Origin: Bdellovibrionales bacterium
Lineage (GTDB): Bacteria; Pseudomonadota; Alphaproteobacteria; UBA9219
Reading direction: 5' to 3'
Assembly (NCBI GenBank): GCA_040275305.1
Contig: JBEOJY010000001.1
Location: 78,858 to 142,857, forward strand
DNA: 64,000 nucleotides
A program made the translations under genes and the position numbers. Numbering within the stretch: position 1 is the stretch's first letter; each line of letters opens with the position of its first letter. Below, piece by piece: positions 49,436 through 61,222 of the stretch. The notes below the pieces were generated by a model that had not been told where the DNA came from, ran no database searches, and saw only the letters and a program-made list of their open reading frames with translations.

Positions 49436-50407
49436 ATGACTCGCAGCCGCCTCGTCATAGCTGCTAAGCTTGCCTTGTCAGGTGGCATTATATATTTGCT
49501 GGGGCAGCGGTTCGAGGCTCGGCAACTTCTCGAATCGATGCATGGCTTCGATCCGTCTTATTTGTTGGCTTCGATCTTTTGCGCCGTTCTGGCCGTTCCC
49601 ATCGTTGGATACCGTTGGGTTCTGCTTGCTAAGGCGCTTTCCGTATCCATTTCGTTTGTCGAGGCCGTTAACGCGACGTTCGCAGGGCTGTTTGTCGGAC
49701 AAATATTACCAGGCGCCATTGGCGCAGATCTTGTGCGCGGCTGGATGGTTTGGAGGGCCAAAGTCAGCAACAAGCGCATGATCGCAAGCCTCGTGCTGGA
49801 CAGGGTCGTTTCGTTGGGCGCGGTCGGGCTTATGATCGCGGGGACGTTGCCGTTTCTTATTGTTCGGCTGCCGCGCGAGCATTTTCTTTGGGTGGTGTGG
49901 AGTCTTCTGGGATTGACCGGGTGTTTGATCGCGGCATATGTCGGCTTGCGTCTTTTCGGGCGCATCAGCAAGAATTTGTCCTTACGCGCCATGATCGACA
50001 AGCTTGATTTGAAGCGATTAAAATTGTCTGTCTCGGACGCTTTGGTTTTGGCGGCTCTCGGCATCGCCGGGCATGTCGCCATGATCGTGTCCGCCTATTT
50101 TCTTAGTAAGGCTATCGGCATGAATTCGGCGCTGTGGATGTGGATGCTGGTCATGCCGGTCGTAATTTTGGCCAGCGCTATCCCGCTTTCCATCAATGGG
50201 TGGGGCGTGCGCGAATTTATGATGATTCAACTTTGGGCATCTTTTGGTTTTCTTGAGTCTGAAGCGTTTCTGACTTCCGTCTGTCTTGGCGCCGTTGCCA
50301 TGGCGTCTAGCCTTCCGGGGGTTTGGTTTTATCTGAAACGTAAATCAGGGCGGTCGCGAGAATCCCTTGAAAAGTATGCACAGGGTTTTTCCAAGAGGTT
50401 GGTGTGA
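49436..50407 (+). CDS. Flippase-like membrane protein (UPF0104 / lysyl-PG-synthase TM-region family)
   Basis: ~8 TM helices, 323 aa. Family commonly partnered with polyprenyl-phosphate glycosyltransferases. Confidence 0.55.
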   Translation: MTRSRLVIAAKLALSGGIIYLLGQRFEARQLLESMHGFDPSYLLASIFCAVLAVPIVGYRWVLLAKALSVSISFVEAVNATFAGLFVGQILPGAIGADLVRGWMVWRAKVSNKRMIASLVLDRVVSLGAVGLMIAGTLPFLIVRLPREHFLWVVWSLLGLTGCLIAAYVGLRLFGRISKNLSLRAMIDKLDLKRLKLSVSDALVLAALGIAGHVAMIVSAYFLSKAIGMNSALWMWMLVMPVVILASAIPLSINGWGVREFMMIQLWASFGFLESEAFLTSVCLGAVAMASSLPGVWFYLKRKSGRSRESLEKYAQGFSKRLV

Positions 50408-52038
50408 TGACTCTTTCGATCAAAAATAAAAACGCAGTTTATCGCGCTATAGATTTCACTCAAATTCTTATTCTTGTTGGGATATTTGTTTATTACTTTG
50501 TCGAGAATTTCGTGTTGTCCGGGAGCTGGGAAATCCTAGCGCTTCGGAGCGTTGACGACGCGGCGATGCAGGGGGCTGTCCATAATATACATAAGGCGAT
50601 GACGGAGGGGCGTTATCCGCTTAACAAGCTGCTTGCAACATTCGATTATGCTTACGGCAACGCATACTGGCTCTTGACCTCCATACTTCTTTTTCCTTTC
50701 TATCTTATCGGCGACGCGCAGGCTCAGATCGTCGCGGGGCGGCAGATTTCCTTGCTGTTTGTCGCTGGCAGCATTTATGTCATGGGGCGCATTGTTGAAA
50801 AGTTGTATCCCGAATCTCGTCGATTGAAATATCCTTTGATGATCGCGATGGCAACCGCTCCGATGGTCGCGGTAATCGCAACGAAGCTTCACGTCAACGC
50901 GCCGTGCATCTTTTGGGGCGTTTTGTCGTTTTACTACCTTGTGCGACGTCCGGACTTTATCAGGAAAGATATGATGTGGTCGGCGGTGTTCGCCGGAGTT
51001 GCTGTGGGCTTCAAGCTTACGGCGGTTTTTATTCTTCCCGTCATAGGTTTGACGTTACTCAGTCAAATCTGGCGGTTCAGTCCTTTGAGGAAGATTACCG
51101 AGATCGCTATTTTTTCCGGCCTGTTTCTTGTGGTCGCCGCAGCTTCCATGTTTCCACCCTTGCTGTTGTTTCCGTTTTACGGCGACAAAATTTCCGAGGC
51201 CTATAAAGCTTTTTTGATGTTTAGGGATCTTGCCGCTATTGGCGGCAACAGCGACTTATTTTTGAAACTTATTAACACGCTTGGTTATTTTCTCTCGCCT
51301 TTGACACTTGCTGTCCTGTCGTTCCTGTTTCTTATGCTGATCCTTGACGATATCAGGAAGCGTAGATTTGTGAGTTCGTTCATTTTCGGCACCATCTTGC
51401 TGACGCTAGGTTATCTTGTTTTGACCGTCCAAAAGGATGCTACGTATGTCGCGAGTTATATGTTGAGCGTTAGCCTGTTCCTGCCGCTTGGGCTTCTGGG
51501 GGTCGCTGCGTTCCGTGCGCCAGAATCGATCAAGCTTACCGTACTTTATCTTATCGTCGTCTCTGGCTTGATTTGCATGACGCCTCATCAGAAAAGCGTG
51601 TTTGATTATTTTAATTTCTTTGCGCTTGCCAAAAGCGAAAAAGCGACTAATCAAATGGCTGCTCTGGAAGAGATAAGGTCCTTGGTTTCGCCGTTGAAGC
51701 TTCCAGTTCGTGTTTTACAGGATTGCGAGTCCGTTTTTCCGGCGACGATGTACACCGATGGCGTTTTTATCGGGTATATTTTCGGGGACCTGAAAGACAA
51801 GACGACATGGGGGGATTTTGACTATATCCTTTTGAGCCGCAAGCATTACATTGGTAAGCCGCCTGCTCCGCTGGTCATCGACAAGAAGACTCCATTGGAG
51901 AAGCTTTCTGGCACCGAACTTGAAGAAGCCATAAGACAGCGTCTGTATGACAAGGGGGATTATTACGGGCGCAAGTATCGTTTGATTTACGATCGTTACG
52001 ATTCGCTTTTGTATCAGCTTGTGAAGCCAGCAAAATAA
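50407..52038 (+). CDS. Polytopic membrane protein, GT-C-like (ArnT/PMT-type) glycosyltransferase candidate
   Basis: ~11 predicted TM helices in the first 400 aa plus a 140-aa soluble C-terminus. Start overlaps the upstream stop (TGATG). Confidence 0.4.
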   Translation: MTLSIKNKNAVYRAIDFTQILILVGIFVYYFVENFVLSGSWEILALRSVDDAAMQGAVHNIHKAMTEGRYPLNKLLATFDYAYGNAYWLLTSILLFPFYLIGDAQAQIVAGRQISLLFVAGSIYVMGRIVEKLYPESRRLKYPLMIAMATAPMVAVIATKLHVNAPCIFWGVLSFYYLVRRPDFIRKDMMWSAVFAGVAVGFKLTAVFILPVIGLTLLSQIWRFSPLRKITEIAIFSGLFLVVAAASMFPPLLLFPFYGDKISEAYKAFLMFRDLAAIGGNSDLFLKLINTLGYFLSPLTLAVLSFLFLMLILDDIRKRRFVSSFIFGTILLTLGYLVLTVQKDATYVASYMLSVSLFLPLGLLGVAAFRAPESIKLTVLYLIVVSGLICMTPHQKSVFDYFNFFALAKSEKATNQMAALEEIRSLVSPLKLPVRVLQDCESVFPATMYTDGVFIGYIFGDLKDKTTWGDFDYILLSRKHYIGKPPAPLVIDKKTPLEKLSGTELEEAIRQRLYDKGDYYGRKYRLIYDRYDSLLYQLVKPAK

Positions 52039-52050
52039 GTAGGATGTTTG

Positions 52051-52584
52051 ATGAATAGCGTTTTAAAGCCCAAGCAATTCATTCTTGATGTCGATGGCGT
52101 TATGACCACTGGCCAATTCCTCTATACGCCTGAGGGCAAGGCCATGAAGGTCTTTGGTCCGGACGATAATGACGCGCTTTCGCTGCTCAAACCGTATATG
52201 GATATCCGCTTCGTGACGGGCGACAAAAAGGGGTTTCCTATCAGCAAGAGACGCATCGTCGACGATATGGGCTTTTCTTTGGAGATCGTCAGCACGATTC
52301 GCCGCATCGACTGGATTCGCCAGCAGTTCGATCCTCAGGACGTTATCTATATGGGCGACGGAATCTTTGACCACTATGTCATGCGGCAGGTGGGGTATGC
52401 TATCGCGCCCGCAAATTCGGATGCACTTGCGAAGCGCCATGCGCATTTTGTCACGCAGAGAAGCGGTGGCGATCGCGCCGTCGCGGAGGCTTGTCTTCAC
52501 ATTCTGGAGAGGTTCTTCGCGCCCTATAATCCAGACATGTTGCCGAGCGAAAACACCAAGCTTTCCGGGGAGTGGACCGTATGA
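52051..52584 (+). CDS. HAD-IIIA phosphatase, KdsC-like
   Basis: ILDVDGVMTTG, ...GDK..., YMGDG..D motifs of the KdsC/YrbI subfamily. SD agga 5 nt upstream. Confidence 0.7.
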   Translation: MNSVLKPKQFILDVDGVMTTGQFLYTPEGKAMKVFGPDDNDALSLLKPYMDIRFVTGDKKGFPISKRRIVDDMGFSLEIVSTIRRIDWIRQQFDPQDVIYMGDGIFDHYVMRQVGYAIAPANSDALAKRHAHFVTQRSGGDRAVAEACLHILERFFAPYNPDMLPSENTKLSGEWTV

Positions 52585-53750
52585 TTCATCAAAGACTGGA
52601 GTCATTTCTCAACAAGCGGCGTTGCACGCTTTTGGGCCTTGGCCCTATGAGCGTCAATTGCGTCGATGCCGCAATCGAGTTGGCGAACGAGCATGAGATT
52701 CCGCTGTTGATGGTCGCCTCGCGGCGACAGATCGATTCTGAGGATTTCGGAGGGGGCTATGTCAACAATTGGACGACTTCGGAATTCGCTCGCTATGTGA
52801 TCGACCATGACAAGAAGGGCAAAATCCTTCTGGAACGCGATCATGGCGGGCCGTGGCAGAATACTAAGGAGATTGATGCGGGGCTTAGCCTGCGTCGCGC
52901 CATGGAGTCTGCCAAGGCGTCATATCGCGCCGATATCGATGCTGGATTTCAGATTATCCATATCGATCCGAGCGTGGATATTCATGGAACGCCGGATGTT
53001 GACGATGTTCTGGAGAGGATCTTCGAGCTTTATGAATATTGTTGGAGCCATGCGCAGAAGCTTCAGCGAGAGATCATTTTTGAGATCGGCACGGAGGAGC
53101 AGAGCGGTAGCACCAACACGCAGGAGGAGTTGGACTACACATTGAGAACGGTCAAACGCTTTTGTTCCAAGAACAATTTCCCACAGCCGACTTTTGTCGT
53201 CGTGCAGTGCGGTACGCGCACGAAAGAGACCCGCAATGTGGGGTCTTTCGACGCTCCGGTGCGCGTCGCCGACGAGTTGCCGCCGGAAATCCAGTTGCCT
53301 AGGATGATCGAGATTTGTAACAAATACTCCATCTTCATGAAGGAGCATAACGCAGACTATCTTTCGGATGCGGCTTTACAGTGGCATCCGCGTCTGGGCA
53401 TTCATGCGGCTAACATTGCGCCGGAATTCGGCGTCGCGGAGACTCGCGCTTTGGTTTCGATTCTGGAGTCCCATGGCCAGAAGAAGTCTGCCGAAGAATT
53501 TCTTAAGGCTTCGTATGATTCCAGAAAATGGGAGAAATGGATGGTCGAGAACACCAAGGCGACTGATCGCGACAGGGCCATTATTTCAGGACACTATGTG
53601 TTCTCCAAGCCGAAGGTCGTCGAGCAATTGGCGGCGGCCAAACAGAATCTCAAGGCGAAAGGCATCGACCTTGATCTTCAGCTTAAAGAGGCCGTCAAGA
53701 AATCCATCTTGCGCTATCTTGTCAATTTCCGTCTCGCGAGGGTCGCATGA
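52572..53750 (+). CDS. GatZ/KbaZ-family (tagatose-bisphosphate aldolase non-catalytic subunit-like) TIM-barrel protein
   Basis: The N-terminal ~110 aa align with E. coli GatZ: LLGLGPMSVNCVDAAIELA vs GICSVCSAHPLVIEAAL; LLMVASRRQIDSEDFGGGYVNNWTTSEFARYV vs [28 protein letters not shown]. Overlaps the kdsC-like 3' end by 13 nt. Confidence 0.55.
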   Translation: MDRMIHQRLESFLNKRRCTLLGLGPMSVNCVDAAIELANEHEIPLLMVASRRQIDSEDFGGGYVNNWTTSEFARYVIDHDKKGKILLERDHGGPWQNTKEIDAGLSLRRAMESAKASYRADIDAGFQIIHIDPSVDIHGTPDVDDVLERIFELYEYCWSHAQKLQREIIFEIGTEEQSGSTNTQEELDYTLRTVKRFCSKNNFPQPTFVVVQCGTRTKETRNVGSFDAPVRVADELPPEIQLPRMIEICNKYSIFMKEHNADYLSDAALQWHPRLGIHAANIAPEFGVAETRALVSILESHGQKKSAEEFLKASYDSRKWEKWMVENTKATDRDRAIISGHYVFSKPKVVEQLAAAKQNLKAKGIDLDLQLKEAVKKSILRYLVNFRLARVA

Positions 53751-54574
53751 ACAAGCGCGTTGCTACGATTATTTTGAATCGCAATCTGCCGGAGGCGACG
53801 GATCGACTGTATGATCATTTGATTAAACACGATGGCGATTTTACGGATGTGTATGTCGTCGAGTCCGGTTCCGATCCCGATCGCTTGTCCAAACATGTCA
53901 CATGGCGCGCGGATTGGCCTGAGGCGGTCGCTCATGGTTTGCGCTTTAACAGGGGGATGAATTACGGGTTGAGCCAGTTGTGGAAGGAAGGCAAGTTCAA
54001 GAACTATGACGCATTCTTTCTTCTGACGAACGATTCGGAACTGCAAGATAGCTCGACGCTCAAGCCGTTGTTGGATATTCTTGACAAGCATCGGCGGGTC
54101 GGGATTCTGTCGCCCTGCGGCAAGCGTTGGGGCGAAAGATTTCTGCTTAAGCATCAGACGACGAAATATTTTTGGTTCATTCACAACAACGCCTTGTTGT
54201 TGCGACGCGAGTTTGTCGAGGCGGTTCTTAACGCGGATCAGCCCGATCATATGGGGTTTTTGTTTGATGGCGCAAACTTTCGGGGCTACGGCGCGGAAAG
54301 CGAAATGATCGCCAAGGCCTATGCCAACGACTGGGCGGCGGCCATCACTTCGGATGTTTACGTCGGGGAGAACGAATCGTATCTTCTCAATCAGGCTGAT
54401 CTGATCAAGACGGAAGGCTATGAAGAGAATTTGAGGCTCTATATCGAGGAAGGCCAGCGCTGGATGCGCAATAAGTACGGATTCAACAGCCGCTGGTCGA
54501 TGCAGCAATATGTGAAGAGCTTCTACGAACGGTTCTTCGACTTTTATCCGGAATACAAAAACTATCAGGTGTGA
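53747..54574 (+). CDS. GT-A-fold glycosyltransferase-like protein
   Basis: VATIILNRNLPE at the N-terminus resembles the GT2 start; TNDSE possible DxD. ATGA overlap with the upstream gene. Confidence 0.4.
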   Translation: MNKRVATIILNRNLPEATDRLYDHLIKHDGDFTDVYVVESGSDPDRLSKHVTWRADWPEAVAHGLRFNRGMNYGLSQLWKEGKFKNYDAFFLLTNDSELQDSSTLKPLLDILDKHRRVGILSPCGKRWGERFLLKHQTTKYFWFIHNNALLLRREFVEAVLNADQPDHMGFLFDGANFRGYGAESEMIAKAYANDWAAAITSDVYVGENESYLLNQADLIKTEGYEENLRLYIEEGQRWMRNKYGFNSRWSMQQYVKSFYERFFDFYPEYKNYQV

Positions 54575-54582
54575 GGATCGTC

Positions 54583-54927
54583 ATGGACGTTATCGAAAAG
54601 CCTTGGGGCAAGGAAGAAGTGATCGAGATCAATGATCGCTATATGATGAAGAAGCTTACGATGTGGAAAGGCCATCGTTGCAGCATTCAGTATCATAACG
54701 TCAAATGCGAGACGATCTATGTGTTGTCGGGGCAGTTGCGCATCTATAGCGGCCCTTCGCTTGAAAAGCTTGACTCCAAGGTTTATGTGCCCGGCGAGAC
54801 GATCACGATCAGGCCGGGGACCGTTCATCGCATGGAAGCGGTCGAGGATAGCGTCTATCTAGAAGCCAGCACCCCGGAAATGACAGATGTGGTGCGGCTT
54901 CAGGACGATTATCAAAGGGCTTCGTAG
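54583..54927 (+). CDS. Cupin-domain protein (mannose-6-phosphate-isomerase type II C-terminal-like)
   Basis: EKPWGKEE ... H.CSIQYH ... ETIYVLSG. SD gagga upstream. Confidence 0.6.
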   Translation: MDVIEKPWGKEEVIEINDRYMMKKLTMWKGHRCSIQYHNVKCETIYVLSGQLRIYSGPSLEKLDSKVYVPGETITIRPGTVHRMEAVEDSVYLEASTPEMTDVVRLQDDYQRAS

Positions 54928-56504
54928 TGGGGTACAGGGTTTGCATTCCGACCGCAGGGACGGGGTCAAGGCTCGGCGGGTTGACGCGGTATGTCAATAA
55001 GTCGCTGGTCGCTCTTGCCAACCGTCCGACCTTGTCGCATGTGATCGAGCAATTTCCACAAGATGCAGAATTCGTCATTCCGCTGGGGCACAAGGCTCAT
55101 CTGGTACGCGAATATTTGCAGTTGGCCTATCCGCAGCGCAAATTTTTCTTCGCCAGCGTTTCGCCGTTCGAAGGGCCGGGGTCGGGGCTTGGGCTTAGCC
55201 TGCTCACCTGCAAGGAATTTCTCCAGCAACCCTTCATCTTCATTTCCTGTGATACTCTGGTGAAAGAACCGATCCCCGCGCCTGACCAAAACTGGATGGG
55301 CTATGCGGAGTTGGATCAGATTGCGTCGTACAGGACGCTTTGCGTTCGCGATGGGAAGGTCGAGAGGATTTGCGAGAAGGGCGAGGGGAGTCCGGAGACG
55401 CACAAGCCCTATATCGGGCTTGCAGGCATTCACGATTACAAGGCTTTCTGGGAGGCTATGGAGGCGGGCGGCGACAAGACGATTGCTATGGGTGAGTCGC
55501 ACGGAATGCGCGACCTTGTGGGCCTTGACATTCGCGCGCATGGCTTCACGTGGTTCGACACGGGCAATCCGCAGGCTTTGGCGCGGACTCAGGAAGCCTA
55601 TCGGGTGGCGGATGCTCCTAATATTCTTGAGAAGGCGAACGAGGCGATTTGGTTCGTGGACGGCAAGGTCATCAAGTTTTCGGACGACGAAAAGTTTATT
55701 CGGAACAGGGTCGAGCGCGTTGGCGAGCTTACGGGATTCGTGCCGGAAGTTACGGGTTCGACCGCTCATATGTACAGCTATGCCAAGGTGAAGGGCAGGG
55801 TGCTGTCCGAGGCGGTGACGCTGCCGGTATTTGACAAACTGTTGGCATTCAGCAAGGGATTTTGGCAACCGCATGCGTTGGACGCCGCCGGGGCCAAGGC
55901 TTTCCATGACGGCTGCATGAAGTTTTATCGGGACAAGACTTTGGAGCGCGTGCAGCTTTTCTATAAGAATTTCAAGCGGCAGGACGGCACGGAATCCATC
56001 AATGGGTTCGCTATGCCGACGCTTGAGGAATTGTTCAAGTCGCTGGATTGGGAGTGGCTTGCGCAGGGTATGTCAGGACGGTTCCATGGCGATTTTCATT
56101 TCGAGAATATTTTGTGGGATGCTGATACAAAACGGTTTGTTTTTCTTGATTGGCGACAAGATTTTGGCGGCGATCTTAAGACGGGCGATGTTTATTACGA
56201 TCTGGCTAAGCTTTGGCATGGCCTTATCATTTGCCATGAGTTGATTGCCCAGAATCAATTCTTGGTCGAATGGGGCGCTAGGGAAATCCGTTACGATTTT
56301 CATCGTAAACAGATGCTGGTCGCGTGCGAAGAGGCGTATAGGCGATGGCTTGATGCTGAAGGATATGACCGCAAGAAAGTTTGGATTATGACGGCGCTGG
56401 TCTACCTTAATATTGCGGCTTTGCACCATTATCCCTATTCGTTGTTGTTGTATGCCTTGGGCAAGGCGATGCTGTTCAGAGGATTGCAAGATGCAGTTGA
56501 TTGA
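54927..56504 (+). CDS. Fused nucleotidyltransferase (N-term) plus APH/choline-kinase-like kinase (C-term); LicCA-like or MurU/AmgK-like
   Basis: N-terminus CIPTAGTGSRLG (sugar/alcohol-phosphate NTase G-loop). C-terminus HGDFHFENILWD...FLDW (Brenner HGDxxxxN motif and D of APH/ChoK fold). GTG start overlaps the cupin stop. Confidence 0.6.
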   Translation: MGYRVCIPTAGTGSRLGGLTRYVNKSLVALANRPTLSHVIEQFPQDAEFVIPLGHKAHLVREYLQLAYPQRKFFFASVSPFEGPGSGLGLSLLTCKEFLQQPFIFISCDTLVKEPIPAPDQNWMGYAELDQIASYRTLCVRDGKVERICEKGEGSPETHKPYIGLAGIHDYKAFWEAMEAGGDKTIAMGESHGMRDLVGLDIRAHGFTWFDTGNPQALARTQEAYRVADAPNILEKANEAIWFVDGKVIKFSDDEKFIRNRVERVGELTGFVPEVTGSTAHMYSYAKVKGRVLSEAVTLPVFDKLLAFSKGFWQPHALDAAGAKAFHDGCMKFYRDKTLERVQLFYKNFKRQDGTESINGFAMPTLEELFKSLDWEWLAQGMSGRFHGDFHFENILWDADTKRFVFLDWRQDFGGDLKTGDVYYDLAKLWHGLIICHELIAQNQFLVEWGAREIRYDFHRKQMLVACEEAYRRWLDAEGYDRKKVWIMTALVYLNIAALHHYPYSLLLYALGKAMLFRGLQDAVD

Positions 56505-57627
56505 AAGATCCCGTTGCGCGATTTCCGGGCAGGACGATCTGGAGCCGCTTTACACGTTTCCCAAGTTTCCCGTGTTCATGGGGTGCATGGATCAGCCGGA
56601 GACGGACGATCTCAAGCAGGATATGGCTTGGTGGATCAGCCGGGGAAGCGGCTTGATCCAATTGAAGAACTTGTTGCCTCTCGATGTGCTCTATCCGGAG
56701 TCGCATGGTTCCGGCGCAATCGGCGCGTTATGGGAGAAGCATCACAGGACGTTCGCGCAGTTTATTCATCGCCTCAATCCTTCGTCGGTGCTGGAGATCG
56801 GAGGGGGGCATGGCATGCTGGCCAAAGAATATCAGTCTTTGGCTGACATTCCGTGGACGATCCTTGAGCCGAATCCTTCTCCGGTCGAGGGATTGAAAGC
56901 GCGCATCATCAAGGGTTTCTTCGACGAGCGCTTTACGTTTAGCGATTCGTTCGATGTTCTCGCGCACTCCCATGTTTTCGAGCATATTTATGAACCCGAC
57001 CAGTTTATGGGCCAATTATCCCACTTTATGAAGGTCGGGCAGCATCTGGTGTTTTCCTTGCCGAATATGCAGGTCATGCTTGAGCGCCAGTACAACAATT
57101 GCATCAATTTTGAGCACACGGTTTTGCTGACCGAGACCTATGTCGAGCATTTGCTCGCCAAACATGGGTTCAGGGTTCATGCCAAGGAATTCTTCATGGA
57201 CGATCACAGCATCTTTTATGACGCGGTGCGCGATGATACCATGAAGCCGATGGCGCTGCCGTCTGGGCTCTACGATTCCTATAAGAATCTTTATCTGGGC
57301 TATGTCGGTCATCATCAAAAGCTGGCTTCGGAATTGAACGAGACGATCCGGGGTCTTTCCGGACCGGTCTATCTCTTTGGCGCGCATGTGTTTTCGCAAT
57401 ATATGCTCGCGTTCGGGCTGGATGAGAGCAAGATCACATGCCTGCTGGATAACGATCCAAACAAGCAGGGACGGAGGCTTTACGGCACGTCGCTCGGCGT
57501 GAAATCCCCCTCTTGTCTTAAGTCGGTGGACAAACCGCATGTTATTTTGAAGGCAGGCGTTTACAATCAGGAAATAAAAAATGATATATTGAAGAATATC
57601 AATCCGCATACTGTCTTTTTGGGGTGA
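56491..57627 (+). CDS. Class I SAM-dependent methyltransferase with C-methyltransferase-type N- and C-terminal extensions
   Basis: VLEIGGGHGMLA motif I. ~380 aa architecture like NDP-sugar C-/O-methyltransferases. Confidence 0.6.
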   Translation: MQLIERSRCAISGQDDLEPLYTFPKFPVFMGCMDQPETDDLKQDMAWWISRGSGLIQLKNLLPLDVLYPESHGSGAIGALWEKHHRTFAQFIHRLNPSSVLEIGGGHGMLAKEYQSLADIPWTILEPNPSPVEGLKARIIKGFFDERFTFSDSFDVLAHSHVFEHIYEPDQFMGQLSHFMKVGQHLVFSLPNMQVMLERQYNNCINFEHTVLLTETYVEHLLAKHGFRVHAKEFFMDDHSIFYDAVRDDTMKPMALPSGLYDSYKNLYLGYVGHHQKLASELNETIRGLSGPVYLFGAHVFSQYMLAFGLDESKITCLLDNDPNKQGRRLYGTSLGVKSPSCLKSVDKPHVILKAGVYNQEIKNDILKNINPHTVFLG

Positions 57628-57630
57628 TCC

Positions 57631-58521
57631 ATGGCTGCCGCGCATAGTTCTGGCCTTAAAGTCGGCCTTATCATCCCGGTTTTCAATGTCGAAAAAACCA
57701 TCGCTAAGGTTTTGGCGGGGATTCCGCAAAAGTTTTTTGAGGATATTTCTGAAATCCTTGTCGTCGACAACCATAGCTCCGATAACACCGTGCCTGTGAT
57801 CATGGGGTTTATGAACGAGCACCCGGATTTCGCTTCGCATGTTACATTCATTCAACATGCCGAGAATTACGGCTATGGCGGTAGCATTAAGGCTGGTTTT
57901 GAGTATTTCATCAACCGAGGCATGACCCATGCGATGATTTTCCATGGGGATCATCAGGTTGATCCCGCGTGGCAGATTGGCCTTCTTTTGAGCATCATCA
58001 AGGATAAGCCGCAGACGGATCTTGTGATGTCGAGCCGTTTTTTGTCCGAAAGCAAGATCGAGAACTACAGCCTTCTACGCACCGTCGGCAACTATTTCTT
58101 CAATGCCGTGACGACGCTTTGCTCCGGTTGCAAGATGTCGGATGCAGGGACGGCGATTATCGTCGCGCGTTGCGACGCGTTGAGCCGGGTGCCGTTTCGC
58201 AATCTTTCCAACACGTGGCAGTTCCATCCGCAGCTTAATATTCTTATCCACAAACTGCCGAATGTGCAGGTGGTGGAGACGACCTTAAACTGGTCGGATT
58301 CCGAGGCTGGTTCGTCGGTGCCCCTGATTCGCTATGGCTTGATCTTGTTGAGAATGCTTGTGCGGTATTGGTACAAGACGAATGTTCTGAGACAGAAGCC
58401 GGAGCAGGCTTTCCCGGTCGATTCGGTTCGGGCTGATCGCCGCTATACCGTGTTGATGCAGTCAGGAAAGGACGCTCCTGTCGCGTGCGGCGAGGCTGTG
58501 GGATTGTCCGCAGCGCGGTGA
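57631..58521 (+). CDS. GT2 polyprenyl-phosphate glycosyltransferase (DPM1/GtrB/ArnC-like)
   Basis: GLIIPVFNVEKTI, VVDNHSSDNT (DxD-like). C-terminal amphipathic/TM region. Confidence 0.75.
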   Translation: MAAAHSSGLKVGLIIPVFNVEKTIAKVLAGIPQKFFEDISEILVVDNHSSDNTVPVIMGFMNEHPDFASHVTFIQHAENYGYGGSIKAGFEYFINRGMTHAMIFHGDHQVDPAWQIGLLLSIIKDKPQTDLVMSSRFLSESKIENYSLLRTVGNYFFNAVTTLCSGCKMSDAGTAIIVARCDALSRVPFRNLSNTWQFHPQLNILIHKLPNVQVVETTLNWSDSEAGSSVPLIRYGLILLRMLVRYWYKTNVLRQKPEQAFPVDSVRADRRYTVLMQSGKDAPVACGEAVGLSAAR

Positions 58522-59526: not shown

Positions 59527-60084
59527 ATGCTTGCGGTTCAAGAATTATCCATTCCCGGCGTCAAGTTGGTCCGGCCTAGGGTTTTCGATGACCCTCGCGG
59601 CACGATGACCGAGGTCGCGCACGATGCGCGGTTTCGCGAGTTGGGATTCCCGGATTTTGTGCAGGAAAATCAATCTTTTTCGAGGCTTCGCGGCACGATT
59701 AGGGGTATGCATTTCCAGAAACCGCCACAGGCGCAAGCCAAGCTGGTGAGGGTTTTACGAGGCCAGATTTTCGATGTCGCGGTTGATGTGCGGCCACAAT
59801 CGGCGAGTTTTGGGCGGCATGCGGTGGCGATGCTATCGGAAGACGAGCTGGCGTGGCTTTATGTTCCCGAAGGCTTCGCGCATGGGTTTTGCACGCTGAC
59901 GAAGGATGTTCAGGTTCTGTACAAGGTTTCTTCCTACTATGCGCCGGGCAGCGAGTGCGGCATGCGTTGGAATGATCCGGCGCTGGGGATTGATTGGCCG
60001 ATTTCCCCGTCAGAGGCGGTTTTATCGGATAAGGACATGCAATTGCCATTGTTCAAGGATCTTCCGGCGGTCATTTGGGGTTAA
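59527..60084 (+). CDS. rfbC: dTDP-4-dehydrorhamnose 3,5-epimerase
   Basis: DDPRG...F.E...[14 protein letters not shown]. RmlC cupin. Confidence 0.9.
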
Positions 60085-60118
60085 TTGTTACGCAGTTGAT
60101 TTCATAGGGTGTATTGCG

Positions 60119-61222
60119 ATGGTTGAGACTCATCATAGCAACAGAGTGCTGGTGACGGGATGCGCGGGATTTATCGGCGCGAATTTTGTTCATCACTTTT
60201 TGGGGCGCACGCGTGGCGGTGGCGCGGTGGTGGGGCTGGATAAGCTGACCTACGCTGGGTGTCTCAAGAATTTGGAGAGCCTTGAGGGCGATGCGCGGTT
60301 TGCCTTCGCGCGCGGCGATATCGGCGACGTTGCGCTTGTGAGGAGCTTGCTTGAGAAGCATAAGCCAGCGGCGATCATCAATTTCGCCGCCGAGTCGCAT
60401 GTTGATCGCTCGATCCATGCGCCGGAAGCGTTCATCGAAACGAATGTGGCGGGGACGTTCCGGCTGCTTGAGGCAGTGAAGGCGTATTGGGTTGGGTTGG
60501 AGGGCGAAGAGAAAGCGCAGTTTCGTTTTCTGCATATTTCGACCGACGAGGTCTATGGTTCGCTGGGGCCGAACGACCCCGCTTTTACCGAAGAGAATCC
60601 CGCGCGGCCCAACAGCCCTTATGCGGCGTCAAAGGCGAGCTCAGATCATCTTGCGCGGGCGTATCACCACACTTATGGGTTGCCTACTTTGACGACGAAT
60701 TGCTCGAACAATTATGGGCCGTACCAGTTCCCTGAAAAGCTAATTCCGCTCATGATTCACCATGCGCTTGCAGGCAAGAAATTGCCGGTTTATGGCGACG
60801 GGCAGAATGTACGCGACTGGCTTTTCGTTGAAGATCATTGCGTGGCGATTATGCGTGTGCTGGAAGCGGGGCGCGTGGGAGAGGTCTATAATGTTGGTGG
60901 GCGCAACGAGGTCAAGAATCTCGATGTCGTGCATACGCTTTGCGATATTCTGGACCGTTTAAGGCCTCGCGCGGAGGGTGGTTCGTACCGTGAGCAAATT
61001 ACCTTTGTCATGGATCGTCCGGGGCATGACAGGCGCTATGCGATTAATGCCGACAAGATTGCGGCGGAGCTTGGCTGGAAACCTGCGGAGACTTTCACAA
61101 CAGGGTTCGAGAAGTCGGTGCGCTGGTATTTGGAGCATGAAGACTGGGTTGCGCATGTCACATCTGGCGCATATCGCCAGTGGATGGAGACGAATTACGA
61201 AGGACGTGTAGCGCGGGCGTGA
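60119..61222 (+). CDS. rfbB: dTDP-glucose 4,6-dehydratase
   Basis: VLVTGCAGFIG, YAASK, extended-SDR RmlB motifs. Confidence 0.93.
   Translation: MVETHHSNRVLVTGCAGFIGANFVHHFLGRTRGGGAVVGLDKLTYAGCLKNLESLEGDARFAFARGDIGDVALVRSLLEKHKPAAIINFAAESHVDRSIHAPEAFIETNVAGTFRLLEAVKAYWVGLEGEEKAQFRFLHISTDEVYGSLGPNDPAFTEENPARPNSPYAASKASSDHLARAYHHTYGLPTLTTNCSNNYGPYQFPEKLIPLMIHHALAGKKLPVYGDGQNVRDWLFVEDHCVAIMRVLEAGRVGEVYNVGGRNEVKNLDVVHTLCDILDRLRPRAEGGSYREQITFVMDRPGHDRRYAINADKIAAELGWKPAETFTTGFEKSVRWYLEHEDWVAHVTSGAYRQWMETNYEGRVARA

Follow-up and report, generated by a model that had tools for sequence, protein, structure and literature searches.

A nucleotidyltransferase/APH-fold kinase fusion as the proposed activation step of a widespread six-gene module for surface-glycan sugars

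The principle of a bifunctional kinase/nucleotidyltransferase (NTase) is already known from HldE, Fkp, and LicCA. Both heptose pathways, HldE/GmhA/GmhB and HddA/GmhB/HddC, run in the order kinase, HAD phosphatase, NTase, and HldE, with its kinase and NTase in one polypeptide, fuses steps that are not consecutive. In LicCA, which makes CDP-choline for decoration with phosphocholine, the NTase is N-terminal and the kinase C-terminal, and the system comes with a choline transporter, LicB, and a phosphocholine transferase, LicD. AmgK and MurU, which are separate genes in a recycling context, pair an APH-fold anomeric MurNAc kinase with a small RmlA-like NTase, the MurNAc-1-P uridylyltransferase, and AmgK, like the APH-fold anomeric kinase NahK, acts on free sugars. 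KdsC-family phosphatases take monophosphate substrates in the Kdo and KDN pathways, before nucleotide activation. Type II PMI-GMP enzymes (ManC/AlgA) couple a PMI-type cupin to an NTase, and the GDP-mannose pathway relies on a phosphomannomutase. In Fkp (L-fucokinase/GDP-fucose pyrophosphorylase) and other kinase-pyrophosphorylase fusions, an N-terminal NTase and a C-terminal sugar-1-kinase in a single chain together yield an NDP-sugar (PMC11982464, PMC12732313). Our search of the open-access literature found nothing on a fusion of an NTase with an APH-fold kinase or on the gene cassette described here.

The window, by which we mean the whole 64,000-nucleotide stretch of DNA that was analyzed, encodes a 525-aa protein in which an NTase is fused to an APH-fold kinase. 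The fusion and the genes around it are laid out as follows.

49436..50407, + strand: flippase-like membrane protein (LPG_synthase_TM / TIGR00374), which opens the operon and is assigned to the delivery module
50404..52038, + strand: polytopic membrane protein, 544 aa, GT-C-like candidate periplasmic glycosyltransferase
52048..52584, + strand: KdsC/YrbI-like HAD phosphatase, 178 aa, which accompanies the fusion almost without exception
52572..53750, + strand: GatZ/KbaZ-like protein of the class-II-aldolase fold, 392 aa (PF08013, 38 bits against a cutoff of 26.7)
53747..54574, + strand: U274, 275 aa, from a family without annotation and given the tentative label GT-A-like (nucleotide-sugar binding)
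54571..54927, + strand: cupin of the type-II phosphomannose-isomerase kind, 118 aa (MannoseP_isomer PF01050, 39.2 bits against a cutoff of 23.6)
54927..55607, + strand: N-terminal half of the fusion, residues 1-227, sugar/alcohol-phosphate NTase domain
55608..56504, + strand: C-terminal half of the fusion, residues 228-525, small-molecule kinase domain of the APH/choline-kinase fold
56491..57627, + strand: SAM methyltransferase, 378 aa, homologous to the NDP-sugar 3-C-methyltransferases TylC3/TcaB9/KijD1
57631..58521, + strand: GT2 glycosyltransferase resembling polyprenyl-phosphate glycosyl synthases (Glycos_transf_2, 52.8 bits), likewise assigned to the delivery module

Set beside the heptose pathways, the operon is predicted to encode the same four activities (sugar-phosphate isomerase, anomeric kinase, HAD phosphatase, and NTase), with kinase and NTase sharing one polypeptide as in HldE. 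The kinase of HldE is ribokinase-like (PfkB) and HddA is a GHMP kinase, whereas the window kinase has the APH fold. Where the heptose pathways use the isomerase GmhA, the cassette has a cupin or a SIS protein resembling 6-phospho-3-hexuloisomerase (PHI); its phosphatase is of the KdsC rather than the GmhB type, and its NTase belongs to the RmlA/GalU type in contrast to the cytidylyltransferase type of HldE. The window fusion is an analogue of HldE, not a homologue. A probable C4-epimerase and a methyltransferase are additions relative to the heptose pathways, and the 1,n-bisphosphate intermediate of the cassette is one that we only propose here. LicC and LicA represent the same two fold classes as the fusion, in the same order in LicCA, and both are among its top structural neighbors, but their identity to the window protein is only 14-17%, and the partners of the cassette are sugar-phosphate enzymes. 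The chemistry of AmgK and MurU is that proposed for the fusion; unlike them, the window protein is one chain, with no MurNAc-related neighbors. Fkp has a GHMP-fold kinase and salvages free fucose, whereas the APH-fold window kinase would serve a de novo pathway with a dedicated phosphatase. The cassette resembles PMI-GMP in pairing a PMI-type cupin with an NTase, but the natural fusions P0249 and P0256 reverse the domain order and place the cupin first. The cassette has no mutase and carries a kinase and a phosphatase instead, and the probable C4-epimerase ahead of the fusion points to a sugar other than mannose.

The first-pass annotation had read the protein as an N-terminal NTase joined to a C-terminal APH-type kinase, with the catalytic motifs of both in place, and had suggested checking this with domain HMMs. 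The searches bear out the architecture. Pfam PF01636 (APH), with a cutoff of 23.2 bits, matches the C-terminal half of the window protein at 41.7 bits (E 1.5e-10) and also matches 29 of 42 divergent fusion members. The Brenner motif HxDxxxxN reads H387-G-D389-F-H-F-E-N394, and it is invariant or at least 90% conserved in the family, as are the Mg-binding D408 and the beta3 ATP-binding K250. This half has a bilobal kinase fold that structural comparison places at equal distance from aminoglycoside, choline, and fructosamine kinases; a family-profile search of solved structures returned no kinase among the 60 matches listed. The N-terminal half has a Rossmann-like NTase fold and a complete RmlA-type motif set, consisting of the G-x-G-[ST]-R-L loop, the phosphate-binding Lys, two Mg-binding Asp residues, EKG (with the EKP-type Lys), and WxDTG. 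Across the family, conservation is complete or no lower than 90% at the corresponding positions G11, G13, R15, K25, D109, K151 (EKG), and D211 (WxDTG), their equivalence to RmlA residues being drawn from HMM alignments and general knowledge of RmlA. In a sequence search of solved structures the single window protein gave only marginal matches, to its N-terminal half; a profile of the NTase half reached RmlA-type enzymes at E 2e-12 and HddC at E 2.3e-10.

The Pfam scores of this N-terminal half could be read another way. For NTP_transferase and NTP_transf_3 the window protein stays below the gathering cutoffs (19.2 against 21.2 and 23.6 against 27, respectively), as might be expected if only one half of the fusion were catalytic and the other had become a degenerate regulatory or scaffolding domain. 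Relatives do exceed the gathering cutoff for the Pfam NTase families, P0249 with 43.9 bits, and 20-22 of the 42 divergent members match them (E<=0.001). What makes a single catalytic half very improbable is that, even when the aligned members share no more than 30-53% identity with the window protein, every canonical catalytic residue of either half is invariant or conserved in at least 90% of them, and that both domains give confident predicted-structure models. Judged by sequence and model, both halves are structurally and catalytically intact, and activity is predicted for each.

The genes next to the fusion keep a fixed order and spacing across loci. In a tblastn tally of 57 loci with adequate flanks, the cupin accompanies the fusion in 54, the HAD and the GatZ-like protein in 51 each, the methyltransferase in 43, and U274 in 39. 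The window junctions from the flippase-like gene through the GT2 gene measure -4, +9, -13, -4, -4, -1, -14, and +3 nt; the cupin stop codon overlaps the GTG start of the fusion by 1 nt, and the methyltransferase ATG at 56491 creates a 14-nt overlap with the fusion stop. Some neighbors are joined to the fusion in a single chain, as cupin-NTase-APH in P0249 and P0256 (cupin N-terminal), NTase-APH-GatZ-like in P0200, and NTase-APH-GT2 in P0270. The N-terminal extension of P0168 was considered as a U274 domain and ruled out on testing; it looks cupin-like. ORF clustering places a GT-B-type protein of about 400 aa beside the cassette in 18 of 84 loci, and the tblastn tally does so in 13 of the 57 well-flanked loci. 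In variant B loci, the GatZ-like protein and the cupin give way to an Rpe/AlsE-like epimerase (193 bits) and to a SIS protein that resembles 6-phospho-3-hexuloisomerase (173.9 bits, cutoff 160), with the HAD and the fusion both kept; a third variant of the cassette has the cupin only. We rejected GmhA as an identity for this SIS protein, which scores only 23 bits with a GmhA model and falls in the 6-phospho-3-hexuloisomerase family. Because the epimerase and isomerase are exchanged as a pair while the HAD and fusion stay, the input to the fusion appears to be an epimerised and isomerised sugar phosphate.

These partners bear directly on two substrate ideas suggested by LicCA and AmgK/MurU, the systems with which the first-pass annotation had compared the protein. 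In the first, raised in that annotation, the kinase would act on choline, ethanolamine, glycerol, or a similar small alcohol and the NTase would make a CDP-alcohol for glycan decoration. In sequence, the NTase half is no nearer to sugar-1-P enzymes than to LicC (phosphocholine) and PntC (phosphonate). Against the idea, it carries the full RmlA-type motif set including EKG and WxDTG, and Pfam Choline_kinase PF01633 has no match in the window protein at E<=1 and matches just 1 of 42 family members (E 0.001). No LicB- or LicD-type gene was seen among the annotated neighbors in the window and the related loci examined, which agrees with the absence of an obvious LicD remarked on earlier, and the genes that do recur beside the fusion, or in some cases are joined to it, encode epimerases and isomerases of sugar phosphates together with an NDP-hexose C-methyltransferase homologue, none with a role in alcohol activation. 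Phospho-alcohol activation is accordingly very unlikely, and LicCA does not serve as a family assignment. In the second idea, the protein would be a fused AmgK/MurU that recycles MurNAc or GlcNAc to UDP-MurNAc or UDP-GlcNAc. The NTase profile does reach the two MurU structures (4y7t, E 1.2e-6; 8hhd, E 0.0086), far less well than RmlA-type enzymes, but the MurU equivalog NF045761 gives 13.8 bits against a cutoff of 250, each locus examined is a surface-glycan locus without cell-wall-recycling genes, and the patchy, apparently horizontally transferred gene is unlike a housekeeping function. Recycling is therefore extremely improbable, and AmgK/MurU fails as a family assignment as well. The setting noted at first, a glycan locus beside a methyltransferase, holds, and the module occurs in glycan loci of the Wzx, ABC-transporter, and polyprenyl-P/GT-C types.

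The best explanation, and one that we consider fairly probable, is that the fusion is the activation step of a portable, uncharacterized six-gene module that converts a common sugar phosphate into an NDP-activated rare sugar for surface glycans, a reading that supports the role in making an NDP-activated donor first ascribed to it. The analysis shows the domain folds, the conserved catalytic residues, the conservation of the cassette, and the natural fusions, and from these we infer the substrate class, step order, methylation target, and delivery route. At the start of the pathway, the GatZ-like protein is a probable ketose-phosphate C4-epimerase by sequence, with a family profile that matches E. 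coli GatZ (2fiq, E 3e-5), whose motifs DH, GTE, and AHSTDY line up with D90-H91, E175, and H259 of the GatZ-like protein. In E. coli GatZ, an F6P/T6P epimerase, D87, H88, E171, and H257 are reported to provide the Zn ligands and the catalytic base (PMC11907403). The GatZ-like Zn enzyme would invert C4 of a common ketose phosphate, turning fructose-6-P into tagatose-6-P or doing likewise with the corresponding heptulose phosphate. The cupin, which aligns with residues 360-466 of GMP_PMI TIGR01479, the PMI part at its C-terminus, is a probable ketose-P/aldose-P isomerase and would convert the C4-epimerised ketose phosphate to an aldose phosphate. The APH-fold domain would then phosphorylate the anomeric hydroxyl of this rare aldose. 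Together, the fusion and the KdsC-like HAD would stand in for a phosphomutase, with C1 phosphorylated, the terminal phosphate removed, and the nucleotide added as the N-terminal NTase couples the sugar-1-phosphate to an NTP and yields the NDP-sugar.

The HAD, which scores 64.7 bits with the KdsC-phosphatase model TIGR01670 (below its cutoff of 107) and 51 bits as a KDN-9-P phosphatase, and which is also present in variant B loci that lack the GatZ-like and cupin genes, could act at a different point. It might first dephosphorylate the rare aldose phosphate, leaving the fusion to work as kinase and pyrophosphorylase on the free sugar, much as Fkp or AmgK with MurU does, and this step order would be the sole difference from the explanation above. 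The free-sugar substrates of NahK and AmgK favor such an order, as does the normal placement of KdsC-type phosphatases before activation. Fusions of consecutive activities are also the commoner pattern, Fkp being an example (PMC11982464). Pointing the other way are basic residues found family-wide near the kinase catalytic motifs, namely R410 (right after D408), K337, R341, and K428, which would suit an anionic kinase substrate but are suggestive only. The heptose pathways, built from the same four activities, likewise place the HAD between kinase and NTase. We judge the free-sugar order unlikely while keeping it in serious consideration. The earlier description of the protein as a one-polypeptide route from free substrate to activated donor is correct in putting the kinase and NTase in one chain and leaves out the HAD partner (51/57); "free substrate" would be right only if the HAD first frees the sugar, since otherwise the HAD acts between the kinase and the NTase.

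Under the preferred order, with the HAD between the two activities of the fusion, the NDP-sugar would be tailored by the TylC3-like methyltransferase and perhaps also by the GT-A-like U274. The methyltransferase matches Pfam Methyltransf_23 at 50 bits, with a weak Methyltransf_14 match, and its profile finds TylC3 (4rv9, E 8.6e-15, residues 48-363), TcaB9 (7e-11), and KijD1 (7e-9) in the PDB. Its H162 and E205-H206 align with stretches that we take to be TcaB9 H181 and E224-H225; the N-terminal 50 or so residues do not align with TylC3-type enzymes, and the Zn-Cys4 motif is not apparent. As a homologue of NDP-sugar C-methyltransferases that keeps the catalytic His and Glu-His, the enzyme points to an NDP-sugar product, and the activated sugar is probably methylated. 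A point against the proposal is that TylC3-type C-methyltransferases act next to a keto group on the sugar, whereas no dehydratase or oxidoreductase able to form one belongs to the core cassette. U274 has no Pfam, NCBIfam, or PDB sequence match. It has 1,756 homologues, and the 120 listed carry no Pfam domain, are unnamed or called "hypothetical protein," and are almost all 274 aa long and 72-88% identical. Its AF2 model has a mean pLDDT of 62.5, with residues 1-120 alone confident, and Foldseek retrieves GT-A glycosyltransferases at E ~1e-3 and TM 0.3-0.45, from which we tentatively call it GT-A-like. We rejected U274 and the HAD as a glycosyl-phosphoglycerate synthase/phosphatase pair, as loci lacking U274 still pair the HAD with the fusion.

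The acceptor step had been left to some unassigned glycosyltransferase, and the window allows a more specific proposal in which the product would probably be passed to undecaprenyl phosphate by the GT2, the flippase-like protein would flip the lipid-linked sugar, and the GT-C-like protein would transfer the sugar in the periplasm. The best NCBIfam matches of the GT2 are PgfS, PpgS, AglJ, and ArnC, all far below cutoffs; it has no TM segment, and its orthologues in loci L001 and L004 are 53-54% identical. The flippase-like protein, with about 7 TM segments, scores 124 bits with PF03706 and 50.9 bits with TIGR00374 (cutoff 43.2), and its gene accompanies the cassette in the same two loci, where orthologues of the 544-aa protein (40-44% identity) also sit at the same position. 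The latter has no Pfam or NCBIfam match; its topology, with about 9-10 TM helices across residues 1-395 followed by some 150 aa of soluble C-terminal domain, makes it a GT-C candidate, and it has a DD motif at residues 50-51.

The fusion family spans 2,337 representative clusters when the limit is E<=1e-3, of which a limit of E<=1e-30 leaves 658, and the best 150 representatives are nearly all full-length fusions, down to 31% identity. Existing annotation calls its members "phosphotransferase" or "choline kinase" only. The fusion is conserved across phyla at 65-72% identity, and the module is present in more than 12 phyla, with Prochlorococcus, Synechococcus, SAR86, Pelagibacteraceae, gut Firmicutes, and Campylobacter concisus among the carriers. 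Besides C. concisus, the cultured carriers include Sulfuriflexus mobilis, Chlorobium ferrooxidans DSM 13031, Massilia sp. Root418, and Aliiglaciecola lipolytica E3. The gene is patchily distributed and appears to have spread by horizontal transfer. Neither complete E. coli genomes nor PLSDB plasmids gave a match, so no known O-antigen structure could be linked to the family, and it is from genomic context that we infer the family's substrate, nucleotide, and product. A fuller version of the proposal, possible though less likely than not, is a de novo pathway, not described before, whose product would be a new nucleotide-activated rare sugar: a hexose or heptose epimerised at C4, of talo or galacto configuration and maybe C-methyl-branched. 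In this pathway kinase and HAD replace the phosphomutase and U274 takes part in tailoring, and the module has spread horizontally through those more than 12 phyla.

What makes this fusion family stand out is that it is very large, conserved across phyla, and locked in a six-gene module, one member of which, U274, belongs to no named family. The proposed pathway consists of six small soluble proteins and is accessible to direct testing, and once it is worked out the fusion and the HAD would offer a compact enzyme pair for chemo-enzymatic synthesis of rare NDP-sugars. Bacterial glycobiology would probably gain a nucleotide sugar not seen before, along with a way of activating sugars that needs no mutase, and thousands of genes now called "hypothetical" in genomes from the environment, the sea, and the gut could be interpreted. 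If the de novo route is true, it would represent a widespread and so far unrecognized component of bacterial surface glycans.

The nucleotidyltransferase (NTase)-kinase fusion lies within nine genes that run along the + strand from 49436 to 58521, with successive junctions of -4, +9, -13, -4, -4, -1, -14, and +3 nt.

Genes of the operon (position, strand, product, basis)
49436-50407, +, flippase-like LPG_synthase_TM protein (Pfam/NCBIfam)
50404-52038, +, 544-aa protein with about 9-10 TM helices and a soluble C-terminal domain (topology)
52048-52584, +, KdsC/YrbI-like HAD phosphatase (TIGR01670, 64.7 bits)
52572-53750, +, GatZ/KbaZ-like protein (Pfam)
53747-54574, +, U274, 275 aa (ORF; no family match)
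54571-54927, +, cupin of the phosphomannose-isomerase type, 118 aa (PF01050, 39.2 bits; GMP_PMI C-terminal region)
54927-56504, +, NTase-kinase fusion, GTG start, 525 aa (ORF; Pfam)
56491-57627, +, methyltransferase, MT (Pfam)
57631-58521, +, GT2 (best matches the polyprenyl-phosphate glycosyl synthases PgfS, PpgS, AglJ, and ArnC)

Housekeeping genes, including LeuD, LexA, RelA/SpoT, and YceI, lie upstream of the operon, and RmlA, an RmlB-like dehydratase, a Wzm/Wzt-type ABC transporter, and a second GT2 lie downstream. In the RmlB-like dTDP-glucose 4,6-dehydratase ORF (59906-61222, 438 aa), the Pfam domain begins only at residue 80, so the protein may be extended at its N-terminus or its start codon may be annotated too far upstream. 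Pfam and NCBIfam gave no match for the 544-aa membrane protein, whose first loop carries a DD motif; its topology makes it a candidate for an unclassified transferase of the GT-C type.

Both halves of the fusion look catalytically competent from their sequences. The first-pass annotation had described an N-terminal GxGTRLG-type loop and a Brenner motif with a downstream FLDW, and these are found at residues 6-17 (CIPTAGTGSRLG), 387-398 (HGDFHFENILWD), and 406-409, respectively. The proposed kinase fold was borne out by Pfam APH at residues 363-433 (41.7 bits against a cutoff of 23.2, E 1.5e-10). On the NTase side, residues 7-110 did find NTP_transf_3 and NTP_transferase, with scores slightly below the cutoffs, and NCBIfam gave weak matches only, to sugar-1-phosphate nucleotidyltransferases. 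An alignment of 42 family members (30-53% identity to the window protein) revealed that NTase residues G11, G13, R15, K25, D109, K151 (EKG), and D211 (WxDTG) and kinase residues K250, H387, G388, D389, N394, and D408 are invariant or at least 90% conserved; equally conserved are the basic residues R410, K337, R341, and K428 close to the kinase active-site motifs. With a divergent-family profile, the N-terminal half matched the RmlA-type G1P thymidylyltransferase 3hl3 across the whole domain (E 2.4e-12), followed by LicC (4.3e-12), ST0452, HddC (2.3e-10), and PntC, and MurU was far weaker (1.2e-6). No solved kinase structure appeared among the 60 sequence matches listed for the fusion-family profile (weakest E 0.015), so the kinase half represents a very divergent branch of the APH fold. 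The suggested likeness to LicCA and AmgK/MurU extends to architecture and chemistry. A LicCA-like assignment fails, since the choline-kinase family gave no match and neither LicB nor LicD was seen among the neighbors examined, as does an AmgK/MurU-like one, given 13.8 bits to the MurU model against a cutoff of 250 and no recycling context.

The genes surrounding the fusion recur with it. All nine are found in the same order in Sulfuriflexus mobilis and a Burkholderiales MAG, and the six-gene core (HAD, GatZ-like, U274, cupin, fusion, and MT) adjoins Wzx-type genes in another contig and immediately follows Wzm/Wzt in a Deltaproteobacteria MAG. Among the 57 loci with adequate flanks, tblastn recovered the cupin in 54, the HAD and the GatZ-like protein in 51 each, MT in 43, and U274 in 39; the complete core was present in 35 and the flippase-like, GT-C-like, and GT2 trio in 3. 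Unbiased clustering of all neighboring ORFs returned the same partners and added a roughly 400-aa GT-B-like glycosyltransferase (18 of 84 loci, with both cassette variants), a candidate dedicated transferase for the product of the module. Examples of this Glyco_trans_1_2/GT90-like protein occur at L015 7072-8370, L027 12758-13960, and L053 8226-9416 (L-numbers denote individual loci); the common cassette has the gene behind MT, and the variant described next has it ahead of HAD. Partners are also joined naturally to the fusion, as cupin-NTase-APH (family members P0249 and P0256), NTase-APH-GatZ-like (P0200), and NTase-APH-GT2 (P0270).

In Oscillospiraceae, Lachnospiraceae, and SAR86, the HAD and the fusion are retained in a variant cassette where the GatZ-like protein and cupin give way to two other proteins. 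One is Rpe/D-allulose-6-phosphate-3-epimerase-like (192.9 bits to rpe and 160.8 to AlsE), and the other, a SIS protein, falls in the 6-phospho-3-hexuloisomerase family (173.9 against a curated cutoff of 160). Two non-homologous pairs of ketose-phosphate epimerase and sugar-phosphate isomerase thus supply one HAD/kinase/NTase trio. Where the first-pass annotation had allowed for either a sugar or a choline-type alcohol, this is the strongest evidence that the input is an epimerized, isomerized sugar phosphate rather than an alcohol of the choline kind. The sugar and its configuration probably differ between cassette variants. Upstream of one variant module (L046 5937-9404, an Oscillospiraceae MAG) are an asparagine-synthase-like gene, a DUF362 gene, and two WavE-family LPS-synthesis-like genes, an unusual glycan-locus make-up for a Firmicute.

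The partner enzymes allow a pathway to be proposed. The GatZ-like family profile matched E. coli GatZ 2fiq (E 3e-5), and D90-H91, E175, and H259 align with the GatZ motifs DH, GTE, and AHSTDY. GatZ and KbaZ convert F6P to tagatose-6-phosphate according to a 2025 study, in which AlphaFold2/Rosetta docking led to a proposed Zn-dependent retro-aldol/aldol mechanism via Asp87, His88, Glu171, and His257 (PMC11907403). Judged by this homology, the first step would be C4 epimerization of a common ketose phosphate, either F6P or S7P. The cupin, of the type II phosphomannose-isomerase kind by Pfam and NCBIfam, would then isomerize it to an aldose phosphate, talo- or galacto-configured if derived from F6P. 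In the order that we propose for the three domains identified, the APH-fold half would next phosphorylate C1, the HAD would strip the terminal phosphate, and the NTase half would add NMP from an NTP to yield an NDP-sugar. NCBIfam places the HAD in the KdsC/KDN-9-P phosphatase group, which removes the terminal phosphate of sugar acids. It is nearly as likely that the phosphatase acts first and the fusion then works on the free sugar in the style of Fkp or AmgK plus MurU.

The fusion product is argued to be an NDP-sugar because the MT homologues TylC3, TcaB9, and KijD1 bind nucleotide-linked sugars. MT residues 48-363 are homologous to these NDP-sugar 3-C-methyltransferases (E 8.6e-15 for TylC3), and the catalytic His and Glu-His pair appear to be kept (HVFEH aligns with TLCHI and NFEH with YDEH). 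MT would methylate the NDP-sugar, which U274 may modify or transfer. TylC3-type C-methyltransferases require an adjacent keto group; the six core genes include no dehydratase or oxidoreductase. The U274 family (about 1,756 homologues/clusters) is large, extremely conserved, and wholly unannotated: among 120 listed members, almost all are 274 aa and 72-88% identical across phyla, with no Pfam domain and the name "hypothetical protein" or none. Its predicted model is confident in the N-terminal 120 residues only, and these weakly resemble GT-A glycosyltransferases. In two contigs with fusion member P0077, carrying the NCBI name "Candidatus Pacearchaeota archaeon", a B12-binding radical-SAM gene sits between U274 and the cupin (L002 3704-5230 and L003 788-2326) with a second such gene close by, a hint that certain lineages methylate this sugar further by a radical route. 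In the window and two other loci, GT2 would place the sugar on polyprenyl phosphate, the flippase-like protein would translocate it, and the 544-aa GT-C-like protein would transfer it to a periplasmic acceptor, a delivery like that of Arn and Gtr systems. In other genomes, the module joins Wzx/Wzy- or ABC-transporter-dependent loci.

The NTase-kinase fusion is old. At 90% identity, its homologues fall into more than 1,700 clusters; the 120 matches listed are full-length (516-529 aa, 65-100% identity, the 100% being the source MAG), come from the window's own Bdellovibrionales MAG, Sulfuriflexus, Burkholderiales, Deltaproteobacteria, and others, and bear generic names only ("phosphotransferase" and "choline kinase", for example). 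When 1.84 billion representatives were searched exhaustively, 2,337 clusters reached E<=1e-3, and 658 of these reached E<=1e-30; the top 150 representatives are nearly all full-length fusions with identity as low as 31%. A one-genome-per-species scan found 176 relatives, and the 80 loci fetched represent more than 12 phyla, including Chlorobium ferrooxidans, Planctomycetes, Bacteroidota, Lachnospiraceae, Oscillospiraceae, Synechococcus, Prochlorococcus, Melainabacteria, Campylobacter concisus, Legionellaceae, SAR86, and Pelagibacteraceae. Complete E. coli genomes and plasmids gave no match. The six core proteins share about 60-88% identity with orthologues in unrelated phyla, and GC falls to 0.48-0.54 across the cassette (50001-58000) against mostly 0.55-0.61 in the rest of the window; together, these observations fit a cassette that spread horizontally as a unit.

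Relatives also occur on contigs labeled as viral. Marine virus AG-345-E15 (MH319741.1, 16013-17557, - strand), an unannotated single-cell contig labeled "virus", encodes a full-length homologue with 35% identity. In Enterococcus phage 9183 (MT939241.1, L087, 2499-4474), the 5' end of a 544-aa gene annotated "NDP-sugar pyrophosphorylase-like" overlaps with the gene for a small HAD hydrolase. The C-terminal part of the 544-aa product resembles the kinase half (25% identity, E 2e-6), and dTMP kinase, thymidylate synthase, dUTPase, and thymidine kinase genes surround the two. The pair looks like a distant phage counterpart of the HAD and NTase-kinase pair, possibly serving DNA or glycan modification.

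Functionally, the fusion is closest to HldE/GmhB and the PMI-GMP/ManB route. ADP-heptose synthesis uses GmhA, HldE, and GmhB, which follow the same logic as the cassette (an isomerase, a HAD phosphatase, and a single polypeptide for kinase and NTase), yet every fold differs, and the fusion is therefore an analogue of HldE and not a relative. The PMI-GMP/ManB route employs a mutase, for which a kinase and a phosphatase stand in here. Our search of the open-access literature found no description of the fusion or the cassette. A fused kinase/NTase that yields an NDP-sugar is already known; what is new is the combination of folds, within an uncharacterized and very widespread pathway.
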